Source: Candidatus Saccharimonadia bacterium
Lineage (GTDB): Bacteria; Patescibacteriota; Saccharimonadia; UBA4664; JBBRNT01
Length of the DNA: 64,000 bases
NCBI GenBank assembly: GCA_038230095.1
Contig: JBBRNT010000005.1
Coordinates: 18,619-82,618 of the forward strand
Direction of reading: 5' to 3'
Of the stretch, positions 5,116-53,218 are shown in pieces; positions within the stretch are counted from its first letter, which is position 1; each line of letters starts with the position of its first letter. Under the pieces are notes generated by a model. The model saw nothing but the letters and a program-made list of their open reading frames with translations, did not search any database and had not been told where the DNA came from. The position numbers were made by a program, and so were the translations under genes.

Positions 5116-5304
5116 CTAACCCTTCAAGATTATTCGTTGCAAAATGGTCGTGAAAACGTAGTCAAGACCGGCGATGAAAAAGGCGATGACCAGTGAGAAA
5201 ACGATCACGGTCAGAGTCATTTGGGCGGCGGCTTTGCGGGTGGGCCAATTGACCTTCATGAGCTCGGCTCTGGCCTCACGGAAATACGCGACGATGCTGT
5301 TCAT
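5116..5304 (-). CDS. secE: preprotein translocase subunit SecE
   Basis: 62 aa, single TM; FREARAELMKVNWPTRKA...; canonical position upstream of nusG. Confidence 0.8.
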   Translation of the reverse strand: MNSIVAYFREARAELMKVNWPTRKAAAQMTLTVIVFSLVIAFFIAGLDYVFTTILQRIILKG

Positions 5305-5344
5305 ATCTACTCCTCTACAGCTAGTATCTCAGATACTGCCCAAT

Positions 5345-5370
5345 CAAAAAAGCCTCCTAGGAGCCTTTAG
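5345..5370 (-). terminator. possible intrinsic terminator downstream of the 5408..6982 gene
   Basis: Minus-strand aaaggctcctaggaggctttttt: a palindromic core ctcctaggag, imperfect outer pairs and a U6 tail. Confidence 0.3.
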
Positions 5371-5407
5371 TCAAATTATAGCCTTTGGGAGCCAAAAGTC
5401 AAGCAGT

Positions 5408-6982
5408 TTAGCGCCAAACAAACCAGAAGCCAGCGCCGTTGCCCACACCTGTAAGTAGTGGGCCACCCAGGAGCCAGACCGCTACTACGGCCCCACCGGC
5501 AAGCAACATAAGGCTGAGTCCGAGAATGATTGCCGGGGCGAGCTGAGCGCGGCTATCATTACGGCCAAGCGTAAGGGCAACTAGGGCGTCTGGCAGGTGT
5601 GCTGCTACGGCTTCGCGATAGGCGTGGAGCCACAGAACAACAACGTAGACCAGGACGTAGTGGTAGGCAACGCCAATAGCAACGATAGAAACGAATAGAA
5701 TAAGGCTGAGATAGGTGGCTAGGTCGCCAATGGTGCCCAGAGTGACGGCCGCAGTGCCGATGATTGCAAGCGCGAGGAGACCTACGCCCAAAACTACTGC
5801 AAGTGATAGTGCGGCCACACCCAGAGTATGGCGCCGCCTAGCGCGGTAGAGCCGGCCACCGACCTTCCAGGCTGCCAGGGGGCTGAGAGCCCCAAGAACC
5901 ACCGCTTGGCTGCTATAGACTGTTCGTGCCCCCACCGCGATTGCTAGTAGAAGCGCCGCGCCACCACCGACTGCCTGCACCGCGTACTGAACAACAGCAC
6001 CGTAGCCTAGGGTAGGTGCGAGGTACACGATAGCAATGCCGGCCGTTATAACGGGTATTACCAAGACTGCGCCAAGTAAGTCGACGCCAATGAGCCCGGG
6101 AAGGGAGTTCCAGGCAGCTACTGACCAATCACCAGGGTCTACCGGTCGCTCATCAAGCTGTTTCGCGTAGCCATGCGTCAGGGCCGCCAATGCCCACACC
6201 TTAGTTAAAATACCAAGAACGCCATAGCCTACTACAGCAATAAGGCCGATAAGCCCCAGGTGCGTTGCTAGGCCGGTTTTGGAGGCAACAAGTAGCGACC
6301 AGAGCATGCCGGCGGAGTGACGACTCCAGGTGAGGGACTGCCCCCGGATTGAACCAAGCTTAATGGCGAACCACAGTGCAGCGGGTACGGCGACAACAAT
6401 AGTGGCGGTTAGTCCAAATCGTCGACCAACTGGGCTCGAACTATGGTGGTGGGCTAGACTGTGCGCCCCGCTGAGCGCCATCATGGGCCCGTGACCGGTA
6501 TTGATACGTCCATGGGGCGAAGTGCTACTCGATCTCGCGGTGCCCATAAGTGGCTTGCTTGGGCTAGCGTGCGGTAGGAGGGCAGGAACCGGTAAGACAG
6601 TGGGCAGAGCTGGGCCAGCGGGACTACCAAAACTTCCGGTAGCCCGAGGCCGCGGACGGGCAGCTGCAGGCTGGCTCTTGGGAGTGCTCATGCTGTCTAC
6701 CATGGGCTGAGGGGAGGACTGGGGACTGGGGGCTGGGACTTTTGGCAGGGGTTTTAGCGCCGGGTGCTCGCTGGGTGTGAGCTTGGCGGGCGAAGTGAGC
6801 GTGCGTTCATGAGCGGTTGGGCCAGTAGTAATAGTAACCGCCGCCGGCGTGGGTAGCTTGGGTACTGCCGGTGCTGGTTGGGCAGTTACCGGTTTTTCGG
6901 GTATAAGGAATCCGCAATTCAGGCAGAAGCTTTGACCCTGAATTGCAACATTATCATCGGCCTGACAGTTTGGACAAACCAT
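5408..6982 (-). CDS. hypothetical protein: N-terminal zinc ribbon, Pro-rich linker and a polytopic (about 10 TM) membrane domain
   Basis: MVCPNCQ...CLNCG CxxC..CxxC motif; ~150 aa of P/S/A-rich linker; then many hydrophobic helices. Confidence 0.6.
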   Translation of the reverse strand: MVCPNCQADDNVAIQGQSFCLNCGFLIPEKPVTAQPAPAVPKLPTPAAVTITTGPTAHERTLTSPAKLTPSEHPALKPLPKVPAPSPQSSPQPMVDSMSTPKSQPAAARPRPRATGSFGSPAGPALPTVLPVPALLPHASPSKPLMGTARSSSTSPHGRINTGHGPMMALSGAHSLAHHHSSSPVGRRFGLTATIVVAVPAALWFAIKLGSIRGQSLTWSRHSAGMLWSLLVASKTGLATHLGLIGLIAVVGYGVLGILTKVWALAALTHGYAKQLDERPVDPGDWSVAAWNSLPGLIGVDLLGAVLVIPVITAGIAIVYLAPTLGYGAVVQYAVQAVGGGAALLLAIAVGARTVYSSQAVVLGALSPLAAWKVGGRLYRARRRHTLGVAALSLAVVLGVGLLALAIIGTAAVTLGTIGDLATYLSLILFVSIVAIGVAYHYVLVYVVVLWLHAYREAVAAHLPDALVALTLGRNDSRAQLAPAIILGLSLMLLAGGAVVAVWLLGGPLLTGVGNGAGFWFVWR

Positions 6983-7070
6983 TAGCTTTATTAAACCATT
7001 TTATTGCCTAAGCTAGCAAGAATAACGCTCTGCCAAGAGCAGAAACGTCTGGCTGGCCGGGATAAGATGG

Positions 7071-7484
7071 CTAGGCGTGACGCGTGGCGTAGTGCTTCTT
7101 AATGTGACGCACGGTCAGAGCATAGTAGAGCATATAAAGGACAATAATGGTTGCAAGGGAACCCCCGGTGATCCAGCTCACATAGTCGGGGGCGTTTGGA
7201 TCTTCCGGTGCGCTATCGGCCTCACCTGCTAGATAGGTGGTGACAGTAAGCTTGTCGGCGGTTGGCTGAAGCGTATTAAGATTGGGGGCAGACAGGGACT
7301 CGCTCTGTCTGTCTGCTATAGCCTGGAGCGCCTGCGAGGAGCCGGACTGTAACATGCTGGAGTCGAGAGACTGGTTGGCCGCAGCAGGAGTAGACGCTGC
7401 CGGACCTAGATCCGAAGCTGCATCGGCCAGGCAGAGAGCCGGGACGGTGCTAAGGGCAATAATAATTAGCAATCGAGGTAGCAT
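7071..7484 (-). CDS. hypothetical secreted protein with a signal peptide and a C-terminal TM anchor plus basic tail
   Basis: MLPRLLIIIALSTVPALCLA signal peptide; C-terminal LATIIVLYMLYYALTVRHIKKHYATRHA. Confidence 0.5.
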   Translation of the reverse strand: MLPRLLIIIALSTVPALCLADAASDLGPAASTPAAANQSLDSSMLQSGSSQALQAIADRQSESLSAPNLNTLQPTADKLTVTTYLAGEADSAPEDPNAPDYVSWITGGSLATIIVLYMLYYALTVRHIKKHYATRHA

Positions 7485-39152: not shown

Positions 39153-40337
39153 CTACTTGAGAATCTTGGTTACAACGCCGGCGCCGACGGTGCGTCCACC
39201 TTCGCGGATAGCGAAGCGGAGGCCTTCTTCCATAGCGATTGGGGCAATGAGGGTAACCTTCATTTTGACATTGTCACCAGGCATAACCATCTCCATACCA
39301 TCTGGTAGAACGATCTCGCCGGTTACATCCGTTGTACGGATGTAGAACTGAGGCTTGTAGCCCTTGAAGAATGGAGTGTGACGGCCGCCTTCGTCCTTTT
39401 TCAGAACGTAGACTTCAGAGTCAAACTCGGTGTGAGGAGTGATAGAGCCGGGCTTAGCCAGGACCTGACCACGCTCAATGTCGGTGCGCTCAATACCGCG
39501 GAGCAAGGCGCCGACGTTGTCGCCAGCCTGTGCATCGGGAAGGAGCTTCTTGAACATTTCTACACCAGTAACGACAGTCTTCTTGGTAGGGTGAATGCCG
39601 ACGATTTCAACTTCGTCATTGACCTTGACGATACCTTGCTCAATACGACCGGTAGCAACGGTACCACGGCCCTTAATGGAGAAGACGTCTTCGATTGGCA
39701 TAAGGAAAGGCTTGTCGGTCTCGCGCTTAGGCTGTGGGAAGAAGTCGTCCATAGCCTTAACCAGCTCCATGATGGACTCTTCGGCAGCAGCGTCGCCTTC
39801 GAGAGCCTTGAGGGCTGAGCCCTTAATGATAGGGGCATTCTCGTCGTAGCCCTGCTTACCAAGTAGTTCGCGGACTTCGAGCTCTACGAGCTCGGCCAGC
39901 TCTGGATCGGCCATATCCATCTTGTTCATGAAGACCAGGATGGAAGGGACACCCACATTGCGGGCGAGCAGGATGTGCTCACGAGTCTGAGGCATAGGGC
40001 CGTCAGCAGCGGACACAACTAGGATGGCGCCGTCGACTTGGGCAGCACCAGTGATCATGTTCTTGACGTAGTCAGCATGACCAGGCATGTCGACGTGGGC
40101 ATAGTGACGATTCTCACTCTCGTACTCCTGGTGAGAAGTAGCGATGGTAATACCGCGCTCGCGCTCTTCTGGAGCGTTGTCGATCTGATCGTAGTTGATC
40201 GGCTTATTAATATCTGAGGGAAGCTTCTTGGCCAAAACGTGAGTAATGGCGGCGGTCAGGGTAGTCTTGCCGTGGTCGACATGACCCATGGTGCCGACGT
40301 TCATGTGCGGCTTATTGCGATTGAATGTATCTGCCAT
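39153..40337 (-). CDS. tuf: elongation factor Tu
   Basis: [14 protein letters not shown]-equivalent [12 protein letters not shown] and SALKA motifs; 394 aa. Confidence 0.95.
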
Positions 40338-40600
40338 GCAGTCTCCTTACATCTGTTACTTGACTCGAGACGAGTAATCCTTGCGACCCCCGTTCTTGCG
40401 GTTGCAAGACTGTCGAAGGGTCAATCATCTGGATTCAAGCATTAAATAGTGCTATTGCCTTCTGGGCACTTAAAAAAACGCCCGGGTTGGACTTAGCCAT
40501 TATAGGGACAACTAGGGGGCTTTGTAAAGGGGTAATACCAGGTAAATGAAAGACGGCCTAGAGAGGTTCTAGGCCGCCGGGTGCGGAGCAGTAGCTGGCA

Positions 40601-40960
40601 CTAGCCTCCCCTGGTGCGCTGACGCTGGAGCGGCGGCAGGAGCGGCTTGCCCGATCGTTTGTTTGAGAGTGCCAGTTCTGATAGCTCAGAAAGTGCTGCT
40701 GCTGAGAGACTACGAAACTCATCGGCGTGACGACGGCGCAACTCGGATATGGCTCGGGCGTTTGCTAAGCGGCGGATTTGGTCGCGCTCATGCGTCGATA
40801 GAAGCGCCGTGGCGGCGCGGTATACAACCAGACAGGAAACGCAAGACACGGCTGATGGGAGCGTTGTGGCGTCTACGTTCGCTACGCGTCGTCCGCACGC
40901 GGCACGGAGCGTGGACGTATTCACATCCCCTGCTGATAAGGCGGCTAGGTGTGTGGTCAT
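40601..40960 (-). CDS. hypothetical small protein; coding status uncertain
   Basis: 119 aa. The C-terminal half looks helical and protein-like (RDQIRRLANARAISELRRRHADEFRSL). It lies in a GC-rich 1.5-kb spacer between fusA and tuf. Confidence 0.3.
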   Translation of the reverse strand: MTTHLAALSAGDVNTSTLRAACGRRVANVDATTLPSAVSCVSCLVVYRAATALLSTHERDQIRRLANARAISELRRRHADEFRSLSAAALSELSELALSNKRSGKPLLPPLQRQRTRGG

Positions 40961-41128
40961 GGTAGGCTTACACCCCCGCGGAATGCAGCTTCTTGCGCAC
41001 GGCTACAGCAACGCGCTTGCAATTGCCACAGCTAGCTGCGGACGGATTCTCCACCAGCCGTATGCGGATAGCATGGGTACCACAGAGGGTCTGTCGGCCT
41101 GTCTGGGCAGACTTGCGAGCGTGAGTGA

Positions 41129-41326
41129 TCACCCTGGCCGCCTTTGTTCAGCCGTAACGGCGGGCTCGCGCAAGACTGACTCCAGCCGAGCTACTTCATG
41201 GCGCTGTACCGCGGCACTTACGACCGCCACCATCACTAGGATGAGCAGTATGCCAATGCCCATGAGTGTGAGCCAAAGCGTGTACTGGTGCCAGTGCTGG
41301 TTGAAAGAGTAGGTGTACTGGTCCAT
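41129..41326 (-). CDS. hypothetical small single-TM protein; coding status uncertain
   Basis: 65 aa with one hydrophobic helix followed by a charged tail. Confidence 0.3.
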   Translation of the reverse strand: MDQYTYSFNQHWHQYTLWLTLMGIGILLILVMVAVVSAAVQRHEVARLESVLREPAVTAEQRRPG

Positions 41327-41530
41327 TGCGACCCCTAGCGCTCGAAATTGGTTGTCAAAGACAGACGCTGTTGTCCGCCACCGATCTCTCGATTGGTGGG
41401 CATATTGTACAACTAATTGGGGTATTTATCACTAGCCTGGTAGCCGCAGCAGAGCACGATAAAGCGGCTCGGGGAAATCCGAGCCGCTAGCGAGTGTGGG
41501 CTGGGTCAGACGGCCAGCTGTGGTGTGGGA

Positions 41531-41743
41531 TTAGGGACGGTTGCTTGGCTGGCTGCGGCTTTCGGCCTCGATCTCTTCATAGAGCCGAGCTAGCTCTAGC
41601 TTCTGGCGCAGCAGGACTACGACCTGCAAGGCTAGGACCAGCACCAGCACGGCTGCATAGCAGATGACCGCCCGAACCATAAACCAGCGTATTTGCCGGC
41701 CGAACTCATACCAGACTGCATAATCGCCCATCATTGCCCCCAT
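41531..41743 (-). CDS. hypothetical small single-TM protein; coding status uncertain
   Basis: 70 aa with one TM helix followed by a charged coiled segment (LRQKLELARLYEEIEAES). Confidence 0.3.
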   Translation of the reverse strand: MGAMMGDYAVWYEFGRQIRWFMVRAVICYAAVLVLVLALQVVVLLRQKLELARLYEEIEAESRSQPSNRP

Positions 41744-41798
41744 TTCGAATAGAACACCAGGACTTCTGGTGCGGCATACTGTACCACATTTGGGGTAA

Positions 41799-41826
41799 CA
41801 AAAAAACGCCCGAAGGCGTTTTTTTG
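41799..41826. terminator. bidirectional intrinsic terminator downstream of fusA
   Basis: aaaaaaacgcccgaaggcgttttttt. Confidence 0.65.
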
Positions 41827-41838
41827 GACACGGTCTGG

Positions 41839-43923
41839 CTAGTTCTTGGCAGCTGCGCGCTTGCCAATGATCTCTTCGGCTACATTACGAGGAACTTCCT
41901 CATAGTGGTCAAACTCCATAGAGTTGGCAGCTCGGCCCTGGGTCATGGAACGCAGTGTGGTGGTGTAGCCAAACATTTCACCGAGTGGGACAAAGGCGCG
42001 GACAATCTTGATGCCCATGCGGTCATCCATGGCCTCAATACGGCCACGCTTACTATTCAGGTCTCCGATGACGTCACCCATGAACTCTTCAGGAACGGTG
42101 ACTTCGACCTTCATGATTGGCTCGAGGATGATAGGATCGGCCTTGCGGGCACCTTCCTGGAAGGCCATGGAGCCGGCAATCTTGAAGGCCATTTCGTTGG
42201 AGTCCACTTCGTGGAAGCTACCATCATAGAGCTTGACGGCCACGTCTACAACTGGGTAGCCGGCTAGCACGCCATTGTTTAGTGCTTCTTTCACGCCGTT
42301 CTCTGTCGGAGTAATGAACTCGCGAGGGACGGCACCACCGACAATAGCGTTCTCAAAGACGAAGCCGGCACCCGGCTCCTGGGGGGTCAGCTCCAGCCAG
42401 ACGTGACCATACTGACCACGACCACCGGACTGGCGGACAAACTTGCCCTCGGCCTTAACGCTCTTTTTGATAGTCTCGCGGTAGGCTACCTGAGGCTTAC
42501 CAACATTGGCCTCTACCTTGAACTCGCGACGCATACGGTCGACGATAATGTCCAGGTGCAGCTCACCCATACCATCAATGAGGGTCTGGGCGGTTTCTTC
42601 GTCAGTATGAACACGGAAAGTAGGGTCTTCTTCAGCAAGGCGCTGCAGAGCAATACCCATCTTCTCTTGGTCGGCCTTGGTCTTGGGCTCGATAGCGATG
42701 GAGATAACTGGCTCAGGGAAGGTAATAGCTTCCAAGATGATTGGCTTGTCGACGTCGCACAGGGTATTGCCCGTGGTTGTGCCCTTTAGACCGACGGCAG
42801 AGGCAATCTCACCGGCGAAGACTTCGCTTACTTCTTCGCGAGTGTTGGCGTGCATACGCAGGATGCGGCCGATGCGCTCTCTCTCACCCGTGGATGAGTT
42901 GAGCACGTAGGAGCCAGACTTGAGTGAGCCGGAGTAAACGCGGAAGAAGGCTAGTTTACCCACGAATGGGTCGGTAGCAATCTTGAAGGCTAGGGCAGAA
43001 AACGGCTCGGAGTCGTCAGCGTGACGGGCGTCTTCCTCACCAGTCTTCGGATTGGTGCCAATAACGGCCTCAATGTCTAGCGGGCTGGGGAGGTAGGCGT
43101 TGACGGCGTCTAATAGCTGCTGCACACCCTTGTTCTTTAGGGCGGAACCGGACAGCACGGGGAAGAGCTGGCCCTTCAAGACAGCGTGGCGCAGGGCCTT
43201 GTTGATCTCAGCAACGGAGATCTCCTCACCCATCAGGAACTTCTCAGTCAAGGCCTCATCCGTCTCGGCGACGCGCTCAATCATGGTGTTGCGGAACTCA
43301 GCGGCCTTAGCCTTCATGTCTTCCGGAATTTCGACGACGTCGAAGACCTTGCCCAGGTCGTCGCGGAAGAGGATGGCTTCCATCTTAATAAGATCGATAA
43401 TGCCTGCAAACTGGTCTTCGGCACCGATAGGTAGCTGAATAGCGACGGCGTTCTTGTTGAGTCGGTCCCAGATGGACTGCATGTCCTTGTAGAAGTCGGC
43501 ACCAGTACGGTCCATCTTATTAATAAAGCAGATACGAGGCACGCCATACTTGTCGGCCTGGCGCCAAACAGTCTCAGACTGAGGCTCCACACCAGCAACA
43601 CCGTCGAAGACCGTCACACCGCCGTCGAGCACGCGGAGCGAGCGCTCTACCTCAACAGTAAAGTCCACATGGCCTGGGGTATCGATAATGTTGATACGGT
43701 GGCCGTCCCAGAAGCAGGTGGTAGCAGCAGAGGTAATGGTAATACCACGCTCCTGCTCCTGTTCCATCCAGTCCATGGTAGCGGCGCCTTCGTGCACTTC
43801 ACCAATCTTGTGAGTCTTACCGGTGTAGAACAAAACGCGCTCAGTAACGGTGGTCTTACCAGCGTCAATGTGGGCAATAATACCAATATTTCGAGTGTTT
43901 TCGAGCGAGTATTCGCGAGCCAT
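41839..43923 (-). CDS. fusA: elongation factor G
   Basis: [22 protein letters not shown] and NKMD motifs. Start set at [12 protein letters not shown] (ATG at 43923, AAAGGA RBS); the track ORF extends to 43986. Confidence 0.94.
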
Positions 43924-44103
43924 GGTGTCCTTTATGGTGGTTAATGACGGATTGTCGGCGCTAACAAGAAAAAAGCGCCGAAGCACTTGGCTTATGATAG
44001 CCGAAAACTACGTGTCAATCAAGTAAATTATAGCAGGCCTGGCTAAAGCCACGTGGTTGTCGTATAAGTAGGTGGATCGAACCCGATAGCACCTGGAGTC
44101 ACT

Positions 44104-44592
44104 GTGAATCTGTATGCAATGCTTGACCAGCAGCTCGTAAAGCTATGGCGCGGTGTCCTCCGCGTACTGTGCGGCCTGACGGGCCGTAGCAATTTCTGCT
44201 TTGCCCGACTCATCATCATAGCCGGTGCCTACTGGAGTGTTCGCTGGGCCGCCTGGCGCCTGACGGACTGGGTAGCGGTGACCGGCTTCGGCGCGATTAG
44301 TGTGGTAATCGTATGGCTGACCATACTGCTGCAAAGGGACGGAACCGAAGTGCGGGTTGGTGTACAGCGACTGCTTATGGCCTTCCGGAGTTCGCTAAAC
44401 ATTACAATCGCCATTGTCGGCTTCCAGTCCATTTTCAACCCCGCGATCCGCAGAATGGTGCTTATCATGGCGCTACTTGACGTGCTGGCCTACTTCGTGT
44501 CCATCCCGACTCCACCCCAGTCAAGCTGGTTCACACGGGTCGGTCGGGCAGCGCGCAACCAGGTTTCCATGAGCCCTCACTCGCGACGCTAG
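44104..44592 (+). CDS. hypothetical 4-TM membrane protein (paralog pair, member 1)
   Basis: 162 aa; similar architecture to the 44677..45219 product. Confidence 0.5.
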   Translation: MNLYAMLDQQLVKLWRGVLRVLCGLTGRSNFCFARLIIIAGAYWSVRWAAWRLTDWVAVTGFGAISVVIVWLTILLQRDGTEVRVGVQRLLMAFRSSLNITIAIVGFQSIFNPAIRRMVLIMALLDVLAYFVSIPTPPQSSWFTRVGRAARNQVSMSPHSRR

Positions 44593-44596
44593 ACCC

Positions 44597-44636
44597 CGCC
44601 CCAATCTGCACGGATTGGGGCGGTAACTTTTCTAGG
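44597..44636 (+). terminator. intrinsic terminator (ccgccccaatc-tgcacg-gattggggcgg, then a T-rich tail)
   Basis: Perfect 11-bp stem immediately after the stop; homologous to the terminator at 45223. Confidence 0.55.
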
Positions 44637-44676
44637 TGGGATAATTGTGGTATAAAAGTGTTCTATTGGCCCACTC

Positions 44677-45219
44677 TTGATAGGACAGGTCATGCTCCAT
44701 ATCGACAACCTACTGGTTAGGTTCTACGCCTACCCCCTCCGCTGGCTGAAGCGGCGCTACAAGCGTGATAACTTCTGGGCGGCGAAGTACTGTCTGATCA
44801 CAGCGGCCATTGCTATCCAGCCGGTTGTACTCATGTTCCACGACCACATCATTCGTGTGCTCGCGGCAGGCTTCACTATGTGTATGGGCCTATTCTACCT
44901 ACTCATCTGGACCTTCGTCCGTGAACTGCGCTCTAAGATGCCCGAATTCCATACGGGTGGTGTCCCCCAGGTATATGGCCGGCTAGTAGCTGCTCGCCTG
45001 AGTACGCTGGCCACGCTGCCGGTGCTTCTGACTTACGAGCTGCTCACAAAACTCAACGGCTTTGTGGTCGCGAGCTACCTGCTGGTAATATCGGCACTCT
45101 ATGCCGCCACAATTGTGAACCTGAACCCGCCCAAATGGGTGGGCCAGACCGGTCGCTCTGCATATGAAGCACTCCGCCGACTTGTCCGCCCAGCCCGTAC
45201 GATTGGCAACGCCCACTAA
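44677..45219 (+). CDS. hypothetical 4-TM membrane protein (paralog pair, member 2)
   Basis: 180 aa. Confidence 0.5.
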   Translation: MIGQVMLHIDNLLVRFYAYPLRWLKRRYKRDNFWAAKYCLITAAIAIQPVVLMFHDHIIRVLAAGFTMCMGLFYLLIWTFVRELRSKMPEFHTGGVPQVYGRLVAARLSTLATLPVLLTYELLTKLNGFVVASYLLVISALYAATIVNLNPPKWVGQTGRSAYEALRRLVRPARTIGNAH

Positions 45220-45222
45220 GTA

Positions 45223-45258
45223 CCCGCCCCTATCCTCTGGATTGGGGCGGTTTTATTT
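45223..45258 (+). terminator. intrinsic terminator (cccgcccc...ggattggggcgg-ttttatttg)
   Basis: Shares the gattggggcgg arm with the terminator at 44597. Confidence 0.55.
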
Positions 45259-45279
45259 GCAATGAAAAGGGGACCCGGA

Positions 45280-46248
45280 TTAGTCCAGGTCCCAACTGAG
45301 TTGGACGGTGTCTTGGCTTGTGGTGGTCTTCCAGAGCGGGGGCCTAGCGCGGTCCAGTACACGGAACTGGGCCTGGCGGAGGGCTAGAATGGCGGAATCG
45401 CTGCTATCTACGCCATGAGGCGTACGGGCAATGAGTCCACCCATGTGCCCGTTGGCCTGCCCGAGGGTAACGCTGCCAGATAATGCTCCATGGAGCTTAC
45501 CCCGCACTCGACGGCGGGCCGCTCGAGTCGGGCGCATAGTAGCCTCCCCAGTGGCAGCAATGTAGGTGATAGCTACGCCGCAGATGGTAACCGACTGCCT
45601 TGTAATGTCACTGTACTTGGTCTTCTTGTCGTTGCAGCGGAAGCCGGCCTCTTCAATAATGCGACGGATCCGGCGACGCTTGCGCTCGCCAATGGGGCTC
45701 GGCGAGGAGAAGGTAAGGTCATCGGCAAACCGAGTGTAGGCCATACCGCGGTAGTCCTGACCGGTCATGAGCAGCATTAGCCGCCTGTCTATGTGGTGGT
45801 CGCAGTAGTGATTGAACAGATCAGGCGAGGCTGGCGCGCCCGTAACCAAACCAACCTGCCCGCCGGGATAGCGCACCAAAGCATAGCGGAGCAGCCAGGC
45901 CGTTAGCCGGTCGCTATCAAGTCCGGGCTCGTAGCCTGCAAGCAACCGGGCTAGACGCCCAGCATCTACATTCTGGAAGGCATGAGCCAGGTCTAGCTGG
46001 TAGAAATAGCGGTGGTGCTGGTGCGGGAAGGCATTACTAATGCTACCTCGGCCCGGCACGGCGCCGTGGGCCTTGACCATGGGGTGGTTCTGGCTCCGTA
46101 GCCACGCGATGAGACGGCCATGTAGCTCGCTCATACTGGGGTTTGGTGGCCAGAAATTGCGACCACTCGCATCACGGTACATACCCAGCCAAGCAGGGTT
46201 GGCACCGGTCGGTAGCTCAAACGGGAAAGGATCCACCGGCACCTCCAT
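45280..46248 (-). CDS. reverse transcriptase, retron-type; RT domain only, with no maturase or endonuclease domains
   Basis: 322 aa with these motifs: GRGSISNAFPHQHH (NAxxH-like, RT1), YFYQLDLAHAFQNV (RT2), GLVTGAPASPDLFNHYCD (RT4, SP not SQ), YTRFADDLTF (YxDD, RT5), and a VT..G-like TRQSVTICGVAI in the thumb region. A GGAGA RBS precedes the ATG. Confidence 0.8.
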   Translation of the reverse strand: MEVPVDPFPFELPTGANPAWLGMYRDASGRNFWPPNPSMSELHGRLIAWLRSQNHPMVKAHGAVPGRGSISNAFPHQHHRYFYQLDLAHAFQNVDAGRLARLLAGYEPGLDSDRLTAWLLRYALVRYPGGQVGLVTGAPASPDLFNHYCDHHIDRRLMLLMTGQDYRGMAYTRFADDLTFSSPSPIGERKRRRIRRIIEEAGFRCNDKKTKYSDITRQSVTICGVAITYIAATGEATMRPTRAARRRVRGKLHGALSGSVTLGQANGHMGGLIARTPHGVDSSDSAILALRQAQFRVLDRARPPLWKTTTSQDTVQLSWDLD

Positions 46249-46884
46249 GGGTCTGGCCAGTCTCCCCCACTGTACAGATGGGCTCTAGATGGAGCAACCA
46301 TAAGGACAACGAGAAGGGCCCCGGCATATACCGGGGCCCGAGGGGAGGACTGGGGGAAGGAAGAAGGATTGATGATAGGTATGCGCCGAGAGATGCTACC
46401 CCGCGACCGAACCACCAGCTGGCTTGCCGATAGCCACCTATCACCCACCGCGTAGGGCACGTCTGCGGTGCTAAACCCCACTTCTTGGCCATACATAGAT
46501 GGTCCCCATCGCGACAGAGCAGACAACCCGTTCGAGACCCGATCGCCTTCAGGCCATCCCAGAGAGGACGACATGCAGCCTCCGTCAAAGCGTCAGCCAC
46601 GCACCGAGCTGAGCCCCGGCTGGGATGTTGCCACAGCTCGCGCAGTGGCAGGCTAACCGTGGGGGCACAACGGACGCATAGCGCCGCAGATACCGCCGCG
46701 GTAAACATGGCTCCAGGCCGCTGAGCCGAGGGCGTAGGCCCCGGGTTGCAAGCTCCACATTACTGCCATTCGCTGGCGCGTTTGGCTACTCCAGCAAGTA
46801 CTACTGGAGGGTAGTCGTGTCTGTGCCCCGACACAGCGGCCTCTAGAATGCCGATACCACCACTATACCGAGACTCCCAGATGG
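46249..46884 (-). ncRNA. candidate retron non-coding RNA (msr/msd) region upstream of the RT; boundaries not determined
   Basis: A 636-nt gap between two same-strand genes with no convincing ORF, only overlapping multi-frame GC-rich ORFs. Contains a perfect 9-bp hairpin gggccccgg-catata-ccggggccc (46316..46339) and further hairpins (caccgc..gcggtg at 46446..46470; gccac..gtggc near 46630..46655; ctgtg..cacag near 46815..46835). Confidence 0.3.
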
Positions 46885-47592
46885 CTACAAGTGGTATGTC
46901 AGCTCTGCAAAGAAACGGCCGTTGGGCTCGCGGTCTAGGTAGGCTACTAGGTCTGGGACGCTCGGAATAAGTTCGGCGCCCGGCACGGCAGATAGATGGG
47001 CCCAGAAGGCCTGTCCCACGGTACCAACACCGGGTATATCATCAGTTCGTAGACTGCCCTGGAGGGCGGTGCCCAGAAAGAAATGGAAGAGGATCTGGCT
47101 GACAATCTCATTGTTCTGGAAGATGGTAACATAGCCATCGCCGCGGTGCTTCAGTGTAGCCTTAAGGCCTGACTTATCCCGCAGCTCCCGCTCGGCGGCA
47201 GCGTAAATGCCCTCGCCGAGGTGCACTTTTCCGTAGGGAAAACTCACCATGCCATAGAGCGGCTGGCGAGCGCGGCGGTATAGCAGGTACTCGCCGGCCT
47301 CGTTCTGGCAGCAGACTAGGGTAACCACTCGAGGCTGGAAACGCGGCTTCATAATGGTCAGGCTCATGCGCTCGGCATAGTCCTGGCCGGATGGCGTAAG
47401 CGTGTACAAGCCGTCTGGGCGCTTGGCCACCAGCTTGTCGCGCATAACGGCCTTCAGATGGTACATAAACAAATTGCTGTCGACGCCCTCGGGCCGTAGT
47501 TCCGAGAAGCGTGCTGCATCGGTCAAGATAAGCGTCTTCACTATGTGCTGCTGGATATGGTGCATGGCTCCCCTTCGCTTCGAGTGTAGCAA
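46885..47592 (-). CDS. winged-helix (N-terminal) plus Nudix-fold (C-terminal) protein with a degenerate Nudix box
   Basis: N-terminal HIVKTLILTDAARFSELRPEGVDSNLFMYHLKAVMRDKLV is wHTH-like. The Nudix box is GKVHLGEGIYAAAERELRDKSGL (G-x5-E-x7-REL-x-DK-x-GL, where EE has become DK). Confidence 0.65.
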   Translation of the reverse strand: MLHSKRRGAMHHIQQHIVKTLILTDAARFSELRPEGVDSNLFMYHLKAVMRDKLVAKRPDGLYTLTPSGQDYAERMSLTIMKPRFQPRVVTLVCCQNEAGEYLLYRRARQPLYGMVSFPYGKVHLGEGIYAAAERELRDKSGLKATLKHRGDGYVTIFQNNEIVSQILFHFFLGTALQGSLRTDDIPGVGTVGQAFWAHLSAVPGAELIPSVPDLVAYLDREPNGRFFAELTYHL

Positions 47593-47674
47593 AGAATTGA
47601 GTCAAAACATATTGACGCGAGCACCTGGGGTGGTAGTCTTTAGGCAAATAGATCTGCCCCTTGAAAGGACCACT

Positions 47675-47989
47675 ATGTCCCAAACCAGCCACAGCATTGG
47701 TGATCGAAGTGCCGCTGCCGCCCAGTTCCAGGAGCTAGTCCTCCACCTAGGTGACACACCTGATGCCGCCACAAGACTGGCCAAATCCATCGAAGTAAGC
47801 CTCACTACCGAGCGGCTGGGTCATGACCCAGCGATTAACACCTACCGGGTGCTTATTCGGACACCATCCGGTGAGTGGCCTATGCGCTACGCCTCGCTCG
47901 AGGGCCTGGAGGCATTTCTGAACGGTGTTCAAGCACTGGGCGCCTGCCTGGGCATCCACTTCGCTATCCCCGACCTGCCCCAGCGCTAG
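47675..47989 (+). CDS. hypothetical protein
   Basis: 104 aa from the ATG at 47675, preceded by AAAGGA. The longer track ORF (47402..) overlaps the opposite-strand gene and is rejected. Confidence 0.4.
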   Translation: MSQTSHSIGDRSAAAAQFQELVLHLGDTPDAATRLAKSIEVSLTTERLGHDPAINTYRVLIRTPSGEWPMRYASLEGLEAFLNGVQALGACLGIHFAIPDLPQR

Positions 47990-48045
47990 CGCTTCCCACT
48001 AAGTAGACCGACCGACCGCCGGCCCAAGTCCGACCGCAACCCCTT

Positions 48046-48080
48046 CCGCCCTAGCTTTCTGAGCTGGGGCGGTTTCATTT
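48046..48080 (+). terminator. intrinsic terminator (ccgccctagc...gctggggcgg-tttcattt)
   Basis: GC stem followed by a T-rich tail, downstream of the 47675..47989 ORF. Confidence 0.45.
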
Positions 48081-48187
48081 GCCTACCTGATGGTCAAATA
48101 TTTTTGACTCAAAAGGTCCTGCTTGGTGTAGCTCATACAGCCACCTACGCTAGGGGTGTACGAGAAGTTCTTTGACAAGGAGACAAT

Positions 48188-48406
48188 ATGGGCGACCATG
48201 GTTACTACGATCTGACACCAGAACAGGAAAGAAGTCAGGCGGAGCATGCAGCTAGCGAACTCGAGCAGGTCTACAGCCGTGATAGTTACAAGTACGTCGA
48301 CATTTGCCTGGATTGTGGCTGCCATGTAGCCAGACGAAAGACCCACGACCAAGTCTGCGTGCCCAAGCTGGAGCGTAGGACTCAAGCATCGGGAGAAGGA
48401 GCATGA
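48188..48406 (+). CDS. hypothetical small zinc-ribbon protein (operon gene 1 of 4)
   Basis: 72 aa; CLDCGCH...C motif; stop overlaps the next start (ATGA). Confidence 0.45.
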   Translation: MGDHGYYDLTPEQERSQAEHAASELEQVYSRDSYKYVDICLDCGCHVARRKTHDQVCVPKLERRTQASGEGA

Positions 48407-49245
48407 CAACTTACGAGGATGTTGATCGGGGCATCTACCACGAGCGCTTGCTCCTGGTTGCCCAAAGTCCACTGCGGCCAATTTTAGTAGAGTTGGCAGC
48501 CGCCCTAGCTGAGTTCCAGCTAGCCCACCCAATTGCCGCGCGGTATGCACAGGCGCGCTATGAGCTTCTGCTGGCCTCCTGGTCGGCAGCTAGTGTGGGC
48601 TGGTGCACTAAGTGCCGCCAGATAGGGCTGGAGCTGCCGCAGCGCTACTGTGTTGAAACCACCAGACACTGCTCCAAGCTAGATAGCGACTACGATGTTG
48701 TGAGCTGGGATGAAGCCGTGACCGAAATCCACTGGCTGTGCAGCACCTGCCGCGGCGCATGCGCGAACCTATACCCCTGCGAGCTCCGCGATGGTTACTG
48801 GTGGTGCGGCCTCGGCGAGGCAGCTTGGGTGCCACGGCGGCCCACCGTGCACGAATTTACGCTGAAAACACTCGATGCTCTGAGTACAGCTCAGCAGCAA
48901 ACCTTGGAACGGAGGTGGGGCCTGCTACCGGCTCTGGGCCTGTCACCGTCCGACGTTACGGGTCCATGCCGTGTCTGGATCGCAGCCCATCTACCTCTCG
49001 TTACCGGCTACACGGCCGATGCAACTCATATCCAGGCGGTGCTAGAAGAGACGGCCATGGCCAACAGCCACCTGGGCGCTACATCTGAGCAACTGGCCAA
49101 AATGATTGGCCCGTGGACCAATTGCCCTCACTGCGGAGCAGGGCCAGGCTATCAGGAGCGCCGCAACCACAACATGACGTGGGGCGACGCAGATATACAT
49201 TGCTCCCTCTGCCACGGCTATGTGAGGAGCTGGGATGCAAGCTGA
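48403..49245 (+). CDS. hypothetical Cys-rich protein with multiple CxxC pairs (operon gene 2 of 4)
   Basis: 280 aa with CTKC, CSTCRGAC, CPHC and CSLCH motifs. Confidence 0.5.
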   Translation: MTTYEDVDRGIYHERLLLVAQSPLRPILVELAAALAEFQLAHPIAARYAQARYELLLASWSAASVGWCTKCRQIGLELPQRYCVETTRHCSKLDSDYDVVSWDEAVTEIHWLCSTCRGACANLYPCELRDGYWWCGLGEAAWVPRRPTVHEFTLKTLDALSTAQQQTLERRWGLLPALGLSPSDVTGPCRVWIAAHLPLVTGYTADATHIQAVLEETAMANSHLGATSEQLAKMIGPWTNCPHCGAGPGYQERRNHNMTWGDADIHCSLCHGYVRSWDAS

Positions 49246-49438
49246 GCCAATTAACTTCTTTCCTATTACGGTGCGGGTAATCATTGATGGACGGATACTA
49301 GCCGCTAGCCTTGAAGGGTACCGGCAGGTGCCAGGACAGTTCTACCCCACGCATACCCTAGCGATAGTGACGGTCGCCGGCCAGCTAAGCCAGCTAGTCT
49401 GCCTGACACAGCTCCTAGATGAATCGGACGCCGCGTGA
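49235..49438 (+). CDS. hypothetical small protein (operon gene 3 of 4)
   Basis: 67 aa; overlaps its neighbours by 11 nt upstream and 4 nt downstream. Confidence 0.35.
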   Translation: MQAEPINFFPITVRVIIDGRILAASLEGYRQVPGQFYPTHTLAIVTVAGQLSQLVCLTQLLDESDAA

Positions 49439-49824
49439 CTCGAATGCAAGCGGCTTGGCGGCTGCTTCGGCTTTGCGGTGTGCCTGTGGGCACTGCGGGG
49501 GCGCGTGAGGTGGCGTGGTTCCTGGCCTGGCTTGCGGGGCAGCAGCCAAAAGTCCTGTCTCGGTTTGACCCCGGGCGCAATGATGAGCATACCCGGGAAC
49601 CAGTGCATGACGAGAGCTACTGGTGGACCAAGCTGTGCATGTACCACCACCGCGCAGCCCAGCTGGGGCTGGAAAGCCCAGAAGGGCGCCAGGTAGTGTT
49701 TGAGCTAGCCGCTACTGCGGCAGGCTGGTGTGCGTCCATCGTACGTGTGTACGGCCAACCCAGCTCCGCTAGTGACGACTTCCGAGCCGGTGTAACAGGT
49801 CTTGATGCCATGACTAAGCCCTAG
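49435..49824 (+). CDS. hypothetical protein (operon gene 4 of 4)
   Basis: 129 aa; no recognised motif. Confidence 0.4.
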   Translation: MTRMQAAWRLLRLCGVPVGTAGAREVAWFLAWLAGQQPKVLSRFDPGRNDEHTREPVHDESYWWTKLCMYHHRAAQLGLESPEGRQVVFELAATAAGWCASIVRVYGQPSSASDDFRAGVTGLDAMTKP

Positions 49825-49864
49825 CCCAACTGACCCCGATAGAGTAATCTGTCGGGGTCTTTTA

Positions 49865-51517
49865 CTAGACCTGGCCTATCTGGAGCGTCTCGCCACCAAG
49901 CTTATCGGTGAAGTAGCTATCATGCGAGATGTAGAGAATGGCGCCGTGGTAGTTGGTAAGCGCTTTTTCGAGCTCTTCGATAGACGGCAGGTCTAGGTGA
50001 TTGGTAGGCTCGTCTAGGATGAGCAGATTGGGCTCCCCGGCCAGCATATTAATAAGCTGGAAGCGGGCTTTCTGGCCACCGCTAAGCACACTGATAGGTA
50101 GCTGGTAGTCGGTGGTAGGATCAAACAGGTACTGCGATAGAGTTTGGCGAACTTTCTGATCATTAATAGGCAGTTCATTAATGCGAAATACTTCAATAAC
50201 AGCGTCGCCAAGCGTCATTTCCAGATAGCGTCCGTCAATTTCTTGTTCATACAGGCCAATCTTGGTAGTACGGTCAATGACAATCTGGCCGCCAAATACC
50301 TGTGCCCGGCTCTCGCCCAACCCGGCCGTAGCAAGGATTTGTCGGACTAGTGTGGTTTTACCTGCACCGTTACGGCCACGTACCTGCAGGCGGTCGCTAT
50401 AGCGCAGCTGGGTAGTAATATTGGCAAATAATGGCTCCTTATAGCCCAAGGAGAGCCTGTCTAGCCCGAGGAGCTGGTGATAGCGGCCACTACCACCCTC
50501 GGTCGAGATACGGATGTTCTTCGCCTTGTACTTGTCATAGCGGTCAACTACCTTGTCCTGCAGCTGCTCCATCGAATCCGAATCTATCCAGAATGACGGC
50601 TTGACCATACTGGCCTTCAGCTCCTCATAGTGTTTGGTGAGTCGACGCTCCATAGGGATGAATGGGTTTGGCGTCTTGGAGGAGCCGGCCTTCTTCGCCC
50701 GGACTTCTTGGATCTGCTCATGCAGCTTCTCTAGCGTGCGCTGGGCTATCTCGTACTGGGCCATGGCCGTGACGGTGGCGACGCTATTCTGCTTGAGATA
50801 GTCATCATAGTTGCCGGTGTAGCTGACGGCGCGTTGTTCTTTTATCTCTATAATGCGGTCGACGTAGCGCAGGACGTCGCGGTCATGGCTAATAACACAG
50901 ACCGACTCCCCAGCGTTCTTAAACCACTCTATGAACTGCTGCTTGGCAATATAATCCATGTGGTTGGTGGGCTCGTCGATAAGCGCCAGATCGGCCTTGG
51001 ACTGAGTGACCTTGGCCAGCTCGACGAAGCGCTTCTGGCCACCAGACAGACGCGCCATGGGGGCGTAAGCTAGATCACGGTTAATCTGGTAGGCTTCTAG
51101 CGTCTGGACCACTTTGTCCTCCACTTCGTAGTAGCCCAGCTCGGTAAAGCGAGTAAGGGCGTCGCTATACTCGTGGATCTTCTTCATATCCTCACCCATA
51201 TGCTCGGGGTAAGTGTCTAGAATGTGCTTGAGTGCAGCGTACTGCGGAAGCTCGCTCAGTACGTAGCTGACCGCTGTAACTTCTTCTGGAAGATGGTGCT
51301 CCTGAGCAGTAGCTACCACTATGAGCCCACGGCGCGTCTGGATTGACCCATCATACTGAGGATCTTCCCCCGTGAGAATTCGAAACAGTGAGGTCTTGCC
51401 GACGCCATTGCGCCCAATAAGGGCAACTTTCTCATTATCTTGAAGCGTAATCTTCAGATCCCGGAAGAGGTGCTTGGTGCCGAGAGTCTTGTTGGTAATT
51501 TCTGCAGTAAGTAACAT
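49865..51517 (-). CDS. ABC-F family ATPase with two ABC domains and no TMD (translation-associated; EttA/Uup/YbiT-like)
   Basis: Two Walker A motifs (GRNGVGKTS and GRNGAGKTT), two LSGGQK signatures and two Walker B motifs; 550 aa. Confidence 0.88.
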   Translation of the reverse strand: MLLTAEITNKTLGTKHLFRDLKITLQDNEKVALIGRNGVGKTSLFRILTGEDPQYDGSIQTRRGLIVVATAQEHHLPEEVTAVSYVLSELPQYAALKHILDTYPEHMGEDMKKIHEYSDALTRFTELGYYEVEDKVVQTLEAYQINRDLAYAPMARLSGGQKRFVELAKVTQSKADLALIDEPTNHMDYIAKQQFIEWFKNAGESVCVISHDRDVLRYVDRIIEIKEQRAVSYTGNYDDYLKQNSVATVTAMAQYEIAQRTLEKLHEQIQEVRAKKAGSSKTPNPFIPMERRLTKHYEELKASMVKPSFWIDSDSMEQLQDKVVDRYDKYKAKNIRISTEGGSGRYHQLLGLDRLSLGYKEPLFANITTQLRYSDRLQVRGRNGAGKTTLVRQILATAGLGESRAQVFGGQIVIDRTTKIGLYEQEIDGRYLEMTLGDAVIEVFRINELPINDQKVRQTLSQYLFDPTTDYQLPISVLSGGQKARFQLINMLAGEPNLLILDEPTNHLDLPSIEELEKALTNYHGAILYISHDSYFTDKLGGETLQIGQV

Positions 51518-51643
51518 AACCCAGGTATATTACGCTAGGCTAGCCCGAACTGCAACCTAGAAACTATTGACAATACATTGTGCTTATGGTACTATGATGC
51601 GGTTCTCGAGAAATCGTCTCGGAATGGACCCCAGGAGTTTGAC

Positions 51644-52132
51644 ATGAATCGCAACCCCTACCTCACCAACCTACTGCTGATCGCCGTGTCCCTCGTGGCC
51701 ATGGTCACACTCGCCGGCCAGAACACTGCCTTCGCTGGAGGAACCGGGTGTCCGGCAACACCAGAGCAGATCGCCCAATGGGCGGCCGATGGTGTCGCCA
51801 ACCCCTGTGTCCTCATCGCCACAGACACCCCGCCGGTCCCTCACCAGCTCAGCTGGACACGGGGCCACGGCTACAGTGGCGACCGGGCATTTGCCTTCAT
51901 TGCCACTACCCGCAACCGCGCCAAGCAGCTGTGCGTGACCATTGGCGCCAAGAACGGCGCCTACCTGGCTACTGCCACGGTCACAGTCGAGAGTATCCGT
52001 CACGACCTGGCTGTCGGCACGGCTGTTGCCACCACTCAGTTGCGCCCCAACAGCCATGGGATTGCTAGGTTCTGCCCAAGCGCTGCCTGGCGGGTAATCG
52101 GTGCCAGCGTCGTTGCTGGGACCAGCACCTGA
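51644..52132 (+). CDS. hypothetical secreted protein
   Basis: Signal peptide MNRNPYLTNLLLIAVSLVAMVTLAGQNTAFA. Start set at the ATG at 51644, preceded by CCAGGAG; the track ORF begins at 51578. Confidence 0.55.
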   Translation: MNRNPYLTNLLLIAVSLVAMVTLAGQNTAFAGGTGCPATPEQIAQWAADGVANPCVLIATDTPPVPHQLSWTRGHGYSGDRAFAFIATTRNRAKQLCVTIGAKNGAYLATATVTVESIRHDLAVGTAVATTQLRPNSHGIARFCPSAAWRVIGASVVAGTST

Positions 52133-52153
52133 CGACCACGTTCTACCCTTCTG

Positions 52154-52197
52154 CCCCGCTTCGAGCTCTACAGCTCGGGGCGGGGCGTTTCATTTCT
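52154..52197 (+). terminator. intrinsic terminator (ccccgcttcgagct-ctac-agctcggggcgggg-cgtttcattt)
   Basis: Shares the gggcgg-tttcattt tail motif with the terminator at 48046. Confidence 0.45.
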
Positions 52198-52201
52198 ATC
52201 C

Positions 52202-52231
52202 AAAAAAGCCACCCGTAAGGGTGGCTTTTTG
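52202..52231. terminator. bidirectional intrinsic terminator downstream of rpsG
   Basis: aaaaaagccacccgtaagggtggcttttt. Confidence 0.65.
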
Positions 52232-52253
52232 GTACCTGCTTGCTCGGGAAGTA

Positions 52254-52730
52254 CTAGTACCGGGCGAAGTGGGCAAAGGCCTTGTTAGCCTCGGCCATCT
52301 TGTGAGTATCTTCTTTCTTCTTGATAGCGTCGCCAGTATTGTTGTAGCCGTTCATAATCTCGTCAGCAAGACGCTTGTCGAAACTAGAGCCGGACTTGCC
52401 ATTGGCAGCGTTCAGCATCCAGGTCATAGCGAGGTGGATCTTGCGGTCGCCACGCACTTCGATTGGCACTTGGTAGGTGGCGCCGCCGATACGTTTGGCT
52501 TTGACCTGCACCTGAGGAGAAACATTCTTGATAGCACCCTCAAACACATCCATTGCTGGCTGCTTGGTCTTGGCTTCAACAATTTCCATGGCACCGTAGA
52601 CTAGGCTCTCGGCTAGGCGCTTCTTGCCGCTCTTCATGACCTTGTTGATGAGCTTGGCGACAAGTACATTGCTGTAGCGAATGTCGGGCTCAATTACACG
52701 CTTAAAGGACTTGGTTTTCTTACGAGGCAT
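52254..52730 (-). CDS. rpsG: 30S ribosomal protein S7
   Basis: MPRKKTKSFKRVIEPDIRYSNVLVAKLINK... Confidence 0.93.
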   Translation of the reverse strand: MPRKKTKSFKRVIEPDIRYSNVLVAKLINKVMKSGKKRLAESLVYGAMEIVEAKTKQPAMDVFEGAIKNVSPQVQVKAKRIGGATYQVPIEVRGDRKIHLAMTWMLNAANGKSGSSFDKRLADEIMNGYNNTGDAIKKKEDTHKMAEANKAFAHFARY

Positions 52731-52801: not shown

Positions 52802-53218
52802 TCAGGCTTTCTTTTCTTTCTTAGCACCGTACTTGGAACGACCCTGCGCGCGCTTGGCGGCACCGGCAGTATCCAGAGCACCGCGAACAATATGGTAACG
52901 TACACCACCGAGGTCCTTGACGCGACCACCGCGGATAAGCACAACGGAGTGCTCCTGCAGATTGTGGCCAATGCCAGGAATGTAGGCGGTGACTTCCATG
53001 CCGTTGGTCAACCGTACGCGAGCAACCTTACGCAAAGCGGAGTTAGGCTTACGAGGAGTTTGCGTATACACCTTGATACAGACACCACGCTTAAATGGCG
53101 ATGGAGCTGGGGTAGTCTTAGCCTTCAGGGCGTTCAGATTGCGGCCGAGCGCAGGCGTAGGCGACTTGGTCGTCTTCGACTTGCGGGGCTTGCGGATGAG
53201 TTGATTGATAGTTGGCAT
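52802..53218 (-). CDS. rpsL: 30S ribosomal protein S12
   Basis: ...[46 protein letters not shown]... Confidence 0.93.

Follow-up and report, generated by a model that had tools for sequence, protein, structure and literature searches.

A 64,000-nt stretch of contig JBBRNT010000005.1 from Candidatus Saccharimonadia bacterium (assembly GCA_038230095.1; this whole stretch is called the window here) encodes a reverse transcriptase (RT) that resembles those of retrons. On the same strand lie an upstream gene-free gap of 636 nt and, beyond it, a gene for a winged helix-turn-helix (wHTH)-Nudix protein. Do these parts form a tripartite retron, with the gap supplying the non-coding RNA (ncRNA) and the Nudix protein acting as the effector, as an initial annotation of the DNA proposed, or does the RT stand without an effector? 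We conclude that the locus probably consists of an effector-less retron-type RT and a leader, inserted as a module beside resident genes. The features that bear on this question are as follows.

45280..46248, minus strand: retron-type RT, 322 aa from its ATG (318 aa in public gene calls), with fingers, palm and thumb only and no extra domain.
45270..45293, minus strand: terminator-like hairpin over the RT stop codon, taken as the 3' end of the inserted module.
46249..46884, minus strand: non-coding G+C-rich leader between the Nudix stop and the RT start, candidate site of the cognate ncRNA.
46316..46339, minus strand: terminator-like hairpin (perfect, 10 bp, G+C) followed by a U-rich tract, with its end 68 nt upstream of the RT ATG.
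46715..46842, minus strand: the sub-domain of the leader that folds best, in which an imperfect closing stem of 17 bp (AGGCCGCUGUGUCGGGG / CCUCGGCUCAGCGGCCU) encloses three hairpins.
46885..47592, minus strand: wHTH-Nudix gene (probable start ATG 47565, 226 aa, as judged from homologues), considered to lie outside the RT module.

The RT open reading frame (ORF) is intact, uninterrupted and full length, and matches Pfam RVT_1 (6.6e-10). The motifs that the initial annotation had quoted are present (NAFPH, GAPASPDLFN, YTRFADDLTF and VTICG). Mestre et al. described two signatures of retron RTs, NAxxH in region X, with the His most conserved, and VTG in region Y (RT7), with the Gly most conserved (PMC7736814). 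The window RT keeps NAxxH at residues 72-76 (NAFPH; in a 28-sequence alignment N72 is nearly invariant and H76 invariant), the catalytic D86 and D176-D177, and G224 of region Y, which is also invariant in the alignment. The V-T of the triplet is replaced, by ING or ITG in the clade of closest relatives and by ICG in the window; the clade segment 'vinGigL' lines up with 'hvtGVtL' of Ec83, where the window reads V-T-I-C-G.

Placement by profiles agrees with the retron assignment made in that annotation, as do the solved structures and the predicted fold. The best 25 of 45 PADLOC matches are all retron RT models (5.7e-26 and weaker). Among NCBIfam models, retron_St85_RT ranks first (8e-21), followed by retron-TIR (9e-16), Ec67 (2e-14), group II (6e-8) and Drt2 (2e-3), with scores far under the curated cut-offs (74 versus 235 bits for the retron model). 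A clade profile built from the window RT and its 27 closest relatives placed solved retron RTs in the top 12 positions of a search of the PDB (Ec83, 3.6e-30; Ec86, 1e-28; then Ec78, Kva2 and Ec67 among them), with retron alignments covering positions 29-290 of 300, and only then GsI-IIC (7e-9) and Drt2 (3e-7). Foldseek, run with an AlphaFold2 model of the RT (predicted local distance difference test, 85; predicted template modelling score, 0.80), ranks retron RTs in the first 18 places among PDB structures, with alignments of about 260-340 columns. The grouping with retrons is a profile ranking, not a tree. All 28 members match every retron type about equally well (1e-23 to 1e-33), so the clade is not assignable to a known type. 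Of these members the window RT diverges most, with 29-38% identity to the others in the alignment and FADD instead of Y[LIA]DD. As far as sequence and predicted fold can tell, it is a retron-type RT, not one of group II introns, diversity-generating retroelements (DGRs) or defence-associated reverse transcriptases (DRTs).

A database search recovered about 30 RT relatives of 290-320 aa with 33-41% identity to the window RT; the closest is the RT of locus L176, and 41% is the best identity in the collections. Their named sources, in genome and metagenome scans alike, are Patescibacteria, Paceibacterota or Saccharibacteria. In the next tier (E 1e-13) are RTs of other phyla, 420-550 aa long and of the ordinary 'retron-type'. 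For comparison of gene neighbourhoods we assembled 164 loci encoding RT relatives, which with the window make 165, about 20 of them in the window RT's own clade. All-versus-all blastp of ORFs of at least 70 aa, from -4 to +5 kb at 18 loci, found no neighbour gene shared in the clade but the RT, once four pairs due to chance or housekeeping genes, and the shadow ORFs within the RT gene, were set aside. Pfam contexts vary from one clade locus to the next (RmuC/MarR, an integrase, type IV secretion system pilins, thioredoxin, chaperonins). The clade is previously undescribed, in this sample confined to Patescibacteria, the Candidate Phyla Radiation (CPR), and apparently effector-less; its members are RT-only and measure about 300-320 aa. 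In the literature searched we found nothing relevant on retrons in CPR bacteria.

What the clade RTs do have beside them is RNA. Upstream of the RT, most clade loci leave about 390-1070 nt free of genes; this gap contains one to three ncRNA units and is often richer in G+C than its surroundings. Inverted repeats of 11-16 bp bound the units and span 190-530 nt, their 3' arm lying 25-190 nt short of the RT start; at 10 of 16 loci the longest perfect long-range stem was reached by no more than 3 of 100 shuffles. In the close pair L002/L168 a compensatory change retains both arms, and the interior differs by a 130-nt indel. The arms of paralogous units of one locus differ yet remain mutually complementary (L166, L005, L009 and L176). 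From 5' to 3', a unit comprises an A-rich stretch, a hairpin of 8 bp (often CAUCACUCAUGUGGUG), another of about 10 bp, a long variable region, a CCUCAG(C/U)G box, the 3' arm and often a (C)CGCUGA complementary to the box. With 5 units as its seed, a covariance model for the pair of hairpins picked up 8 more at other loci, and later models recovered still others. In a 16-sequence alignment of this module, 16 of 18 pairs have changed on both sides and 88.5% of cells pair; sliding the partner by 1-3 columns lowers the latter figure to 39-53%, and none of 500 shuffles reaches the observed values. By sequence, the clade ncRNA has the msr-msd layout of a retron, with terminal repeats (a1/a2), conserved 5' hairpins and a variable 3' half. 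No conserved context for a branching G was identified by eye in the units. The CUCAGCG box, 25-65 nt before the 3' repeat, pairs with the (C)CGCUGA just after it (L166:3904-3913 with 3975-3984, and likewise in L088, L086 and unit 1 of L176); this pairing crosses the a1/a2 stem, and would give either a pseudoknot or an alternative conformation.

The number and position of the units vary. Three stand in tandem in L166 (2930-4000) and L167 (2946-4000), and two in L009 (3920-4700) and L176 (3250-3720), while L005 has two units upstream of the RT (5290-5830) and one inverted unit downstream (7060-7280, minus strand). At L091:1338-1620, L093:1380-1720 and L087:4937-5180, a complete unit is found downstream of the RT, together with a terminator of its own. 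These downstream and inverted units hold the terminal repeats, the two-hairpin module and the CCUCAG box, followed by an intrinsic terminator; more generally, a terminator or perfect hairpin often follows a unit (L091, L093, L087, the reverse-strand unit of L005 and unit a of L166). The ncRNA therefore looks like a transcription unit in its own right, whose placement with respect to the RT is not fixed. The searched literature holds no report of natural tandem arrays of retron ncRNAs, only engineered "retron arrays". Directly upstream of the three-unit array and RT in L166 and L167, from genomes of about 1 Mb, is a tyrosine recombinase (Phage_integrase; L166:1946-2932 and L167:1959-2945), which hints that the module is able to travel on an integrative element.

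The gap of the window is harder to read. That it is non-coding, as first annotated, is upheld by its G+C content by codon position, which is flat (.62/.60/.63), in contrast to the genes around it (RT,.64/.51/.67; Nudix,.64/.40/.70; fusA,.61/.39/.65). The 147- and 163-aa ORFs within it have no codon periodicity, and a coding role, including that of the 163-aa gene called on the public contig, is ruled out by the flat profile together with the lack of similarity in tblastx. Compared with some 170 related loci, the gap has no DNA or protein similarity (tblastx), and it has none to the relatives' upstream regions by blastn or MAFFT. Rfam returned no match at E<=1 within 40000-52000, and searches for tRNA and tmRNA were also empty. 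The gap folds somewhat better than shuffled sequences on the RT-sense strand (z -2.61) and less so on the antisense strand (z -1.23), and its 5' third (46850-46655) reaches z -3.18, with 1 of 200 shuffles as good. Of the hairpins claimed earlier for the gap, the perfect 10-bp one (46339..46316) stands, and it may end an upstream transcript, either the Nudix mRNA or an ncRNA; the a1/a2 repeats expected alongside them stay at chance level and the conserved module goes undetected.

By eye, 46842-46715 resembles a clade unit, with its closing stem, two adjacent hairpins joined by UA, then AAUG and a CUCAGCGG box. The flanks GGGGCACAG/UUGUGCCCC also recall the repeats of unit 2 of L176, at a level not above chance, and the likeness of the whole sub-domain, itself not above chance, is suggestive only. 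We rejected two further candidates at the same level, the two-hairpin pair picked by eye at 46808-46764 and a pairing between the two extreme ends of the gap. The best window matches of our three covariance models (R1-R3, searched over 44000-48500 or 44900-47100) lie at 44593-44668 and 47205-47251, both on the plus strand, with E 0.02-0.3, and were judged to be chance. The former is a terminator-like hairpin after a 162-aa ORF, and the latter is antisense within the Nudix ORF.

Several observations weigh against the reading of the locus as a working, effector-less retron module. With filters off, models R1-R3 give at most 3 bits for a clade ncRNA on the RT-sense strand of the gap. Its longest perfect long-range stem is 8 bp, equalled by 82 of 100 shuffles, and the closing stem of the best-folding sub-domain (46842-46826 / 46731-46715; duplex -36.2 kcal/mol) is matched by 4 of 30. 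The site of the CUCAG box (GCUCAGCGG, 46723-46715) falls outside the best 12 motif-matrix sites in the 64 kb. The terminator-like hairpin at 46316..46339 stands between most of the leader and the RT, counter to simple co-transcription. Beyond the window, the effector-less status of the clade is drawn from about 20 loci, many on short contigs. Models R1-R3 also miss units that are plain by eye (unit 1 of L176, L009 and L094); because they miss genuine units, absence from the window is not proven, nor is presence shown. A cognate ncRNA in the window leader is plausible by its position, length and family precedent, and unproven.

Some of these observations could mean that the element is decaying or orphaned, with an intact RT, an ncRNA that is lost or degenerate, a leader that is a spacer or the 3' untranslated region of the Nudix gene, and no multicopy single-stranded DNA (msDNA). 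The window leader has no detectable a1/a2 repeat or conserved module, a terminator-like hairpin stands upstream of the RT, and the RT itself, with its FADD, is the most divergent of its clade. We nevertheless consider this unlikely. The RT ORF is full length and its structural model confident, the positions invariant in the alignment, catalytic aspartates included, are kept (by construction), the length of the gap matches the clade's usual ncRNA-bearing gap, the leader has excess folding energy on its sense strand, and the covariance models fail on genuine units at other loci as well. Much less probable still is an RT system with an upstream ncRNA that is not a retron at all, such as a DRT2/DRT9-like system, a group II intron remnant or a DGR. 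An RT-only protein with a long upstream ncRNA and no effector also describes DRT2, and a structured stretch of some 600 nt ahead of an RT is reminiscent of domains I-IV of a group II intron. Retron RTs, however, come first in the NCBIfam ranking and in the PDB by both sequence and fold. The RT scores 17 bits against a cut-off of 390 with the Drt2 model (NF041746), with no DRT model among its best 25 of 45 PADLOC matches, and 32 bits against a cut-off of 300 with the group II model TIGR04416. Rfam finds no intron domains or ribozyme domains in 40000-52000, and no other family at E<=1. Downstream of the RT there are just 60 nt and a terminator, which leaves no room for domains V/VI. There is no long direct repeat of the kind formed by the template and variable repeats of a DGR, the longest in 45150-46950, the span of the search, being 24 nt (71% identity).

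It remains to ask whether the Nudix protein is the partner of the RT. As a retron in three parts, the locus would have the RT and ncRNA joined by the wHTH-Nudix protein, in the role of effector or accessory partner. The two genes do adjoin on one strand, the Nudix protein has a weak PADLOC match to the candidate system PDC-S07 (2e-5), and nucleotide-targeting retron effectors are known (the NDT and PRTase types; PMC7736814). The gene, however, is found in the same rpsG...fusA interval of relatives (L170-L174; 56-58% identical) without an RT, as seen from three family members in their genomes. The order is rpoC-rpsL-rpsG-ABC-F-AAA_28-CYTH-x-NUDIX-DUF5661-HisKA-...-fusA in L170-L172, rpsL-rpsG-...-NUDIX-ABC-F-...-fusA in L173, and NUDIX, a 162-aa ORF on the opposite strand, fusA and tuf in L174. 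These RT-less relatives are close to the window genome (EF-G, 86-87% identity in L170, L171 and L174; ABC-F, 88% in L170), and because they hold the Nudix gene there, we regard it as a resident of the rpsG-fusA interval. Family members that have kept their position are at L170:6001-6684, L173:6001-6660 and L174:1772-2461, as well as at 46885-47565 (minus strand) in the window. Conversely, tblastn for Nudix relatives against the 165 loci matched the window copy alone, so that none adjoins an RT homologue at the other 164 (0/164). The RT and Nudix genes are, moreover, parted by the 636-nt gap with its terminator-like hairpin. Synteny and the lack of co-occurrence together largely rule out the Nudix protein as a retron effector; the partnership first proposed has not survived, and we give the tripartite reading almost no weight. 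The literature searched held nothing relevant on Nudix-linked retrons. For annotation, the warning is that same-strand adjacency in a variable island is no evidence of partnership, and that synteny in relatives lacking the element settles the matter quickly.

The family of the Nudix protein, with members of about 220 aa at 50-60% identity, is widespread and well conserved. The window protein matches Pfam NUDIX over residues 88-202 (3.3e-9), and its N-terminal winged helix is weakly supported (DUF7347, E 0.0017). Family-wide, and independently of any RT, the Nudix box is a variant, G-x5-E-x7-R-E-L-x-E-K-x-G-L (D-K in the window), in which an invariant Lys replaces the second Glu. In NrtR, a Nudix fold whose box is non-canonical is combined with a winged-helix domain that binds DNA, which suggests ligand sensing rather than hydrolysis. 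NrtR-type regulators and the neighbour protein have the Nudix fold, a non-canonical box and a winged helix in common, with the domain order reversed (the wHTH of the neighbour is N-terminal); the two are likened by description only. The variant box suits a protein with a ligand-binding or regulatory role better than a dedicated retron effector, and going by its sequence the protein is probably a ligand-sensing, regulator-like resident without a link to the RT.

The remainder of the setting is that of an interrupted str operon. The following genes frame the locus.

52802-53218, minus strand: rpsL.
52254-52730, minus strand: rpsG.
49865-51517, minus strand: ABC-F.
41839-43986, minus strand: fusA.
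39153-40337, minus strand: tuf.
44104-44592 and 44677-45219, plus strand: two paralogous small membrane proteins, both with an N-terminal G.SNF.FA[RK] motif.

The mapped positions of rpsL, rpsG, fusA and tuf bear out that the locus splits rpsG from fusA, and the RT, the 636-nt gap and the wHTH-Nudix gene are all situated between these two. A CPR-like host, also suggested at the outset, is confirmed by the window EF-Tu, which is 86-90% identical to proteins from Candidatus Saccharimonadia / Saccharibacteria metagenome-assembled genomes and 93% identical to that of its closest relative (L174); the host belongs to the Saccharimonadia. G+C content reaches 58-61% at 45-50 kb versus about 54% elsewhere in the window. 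The str operon is interrupted twice, by about 8.2 kb of variable cargo between rpsG and fusA (43987-52253) and by about 1.5 kb between fusA and tuf (40338-41838). In the window the former consists of ABC-F, the Nudix gene, the RT and small CxxC-rich and membrane ORFs. The relatives' cargo at the same two junctions differs (AAA_28, CYTH, DUF5661 and HisKA in L170; a 163-aa ORF between fusA and tuf in L174). A 280-aa ORF (48403-49245, plus strand) has several CxxC pairs and no Pfam or PADLOC match, and L170 too has small CxxC ORFs in this interval, of 104 and 155 aa. Neither of the two small membrane proteins has a Pfam or PADLOC match. Their N-terminal motif also occurs in ORFs just upstream of fusA in L174 (162 aa) and L170 (185 aa); we ruled the pair out as effectors of the two-transmembrane (2TM) type, since this motif is common to same-place ORFs in RT-less relatives, and both are residents of the interval.

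How might an effector-less retron module work here? It would measure about 1.66 kb (about 45220-46884), made up of the non-coding leader, the RT and its own terminator, and would have been inserted between the wHTH-Nudix gene and a small membrane-protein paralogue; no flanking direct repeats or target-site duplications were found around it. By analogy with solved retrons, the RT would bind its ncRNA at the conserved 5' hairpins, a 2'-OH would be set beside the end of the template by the terminal a1/a2 duplex, and the variable 3' half would be copied into a small satellite DNA, the msDNA. Such self-primed synthesis on a folded template is inferred from homology. In the window, the leader would presumably supply the template RNA in a form too diverged or degenerate for recognition. 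For any output in phage defence, the module would have to rely on an effector encoded elsewhere or on the RT-DNA complex itself. Extending this to the whole group, we tentatively raise, as a doubtful but possible reading, that it is a CPR clade of minimal retrons without an effector in cis, in which one RT serves up to three ncRNA templates placed upstream, downstream or inverted. Several msDNAs would then be made, and their function, whether defence by way of host or trans factors or a role apart from abortive infection, would be unlike the tripartite toxin-antitoxin logic; the window copy would be a divergent member, its leader a new form of template.

Compared with known systems, the window RT is like those of the retrons Ec86/Eco1, Ec83, Ec78/Eco7 and St85/Sen2 in size, fold, NAxxH and the Gly of region Y, and the ncRNA of its clade relatives adjoins the RT with the same layout (terminal repeats, msr-like hairpins and an msd-like variable region). 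In all 13 retron types of Mestre et al. 2020, an effector accompanies the RT, either as a gene or as a fused domain (PMC7736814). The clade, by contrast, has no conserved effector gene or fused domain, and has ING, ITG or ICG for VTG. Its ncRNA units of about 200-530 nt are often in tandem (2-3), sometimes downstream or inverted, and have their own terminators, its hosts are CPR bacteria, and the ncRNA of the window copy is not recognisable. In this last respect the window copy is like retron types VIII and XI, which are also without a recognisable ncRNA (PMC7736814); these types, however, have protease or esterase partners or fusions, absent from the window RT, whereas the clade relatives of the window RT do have an ncRNA. 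DRT2 (UG2), like the clade, combines an RT-only protein with a structured ncRNA and no separate effector gene, but the likeness of the window RT to it in sequence and fold is much weaker than to retrons, and there is no sign of rolling-circle templating.

For those who build multiplexed retron editors, natural arrays would be of interest, as would RTs of only about 300 aa. For the biology of the family, a clade of RT and RNA only, if true, would show either what a minimal functional retron is or that the RT-DNA has a role besides guarding a toxin. As its hosts are episymbiotic bacteria with genomes of about 1 Mb, in which few accessory genes are kept, such a clade would be especially informative.

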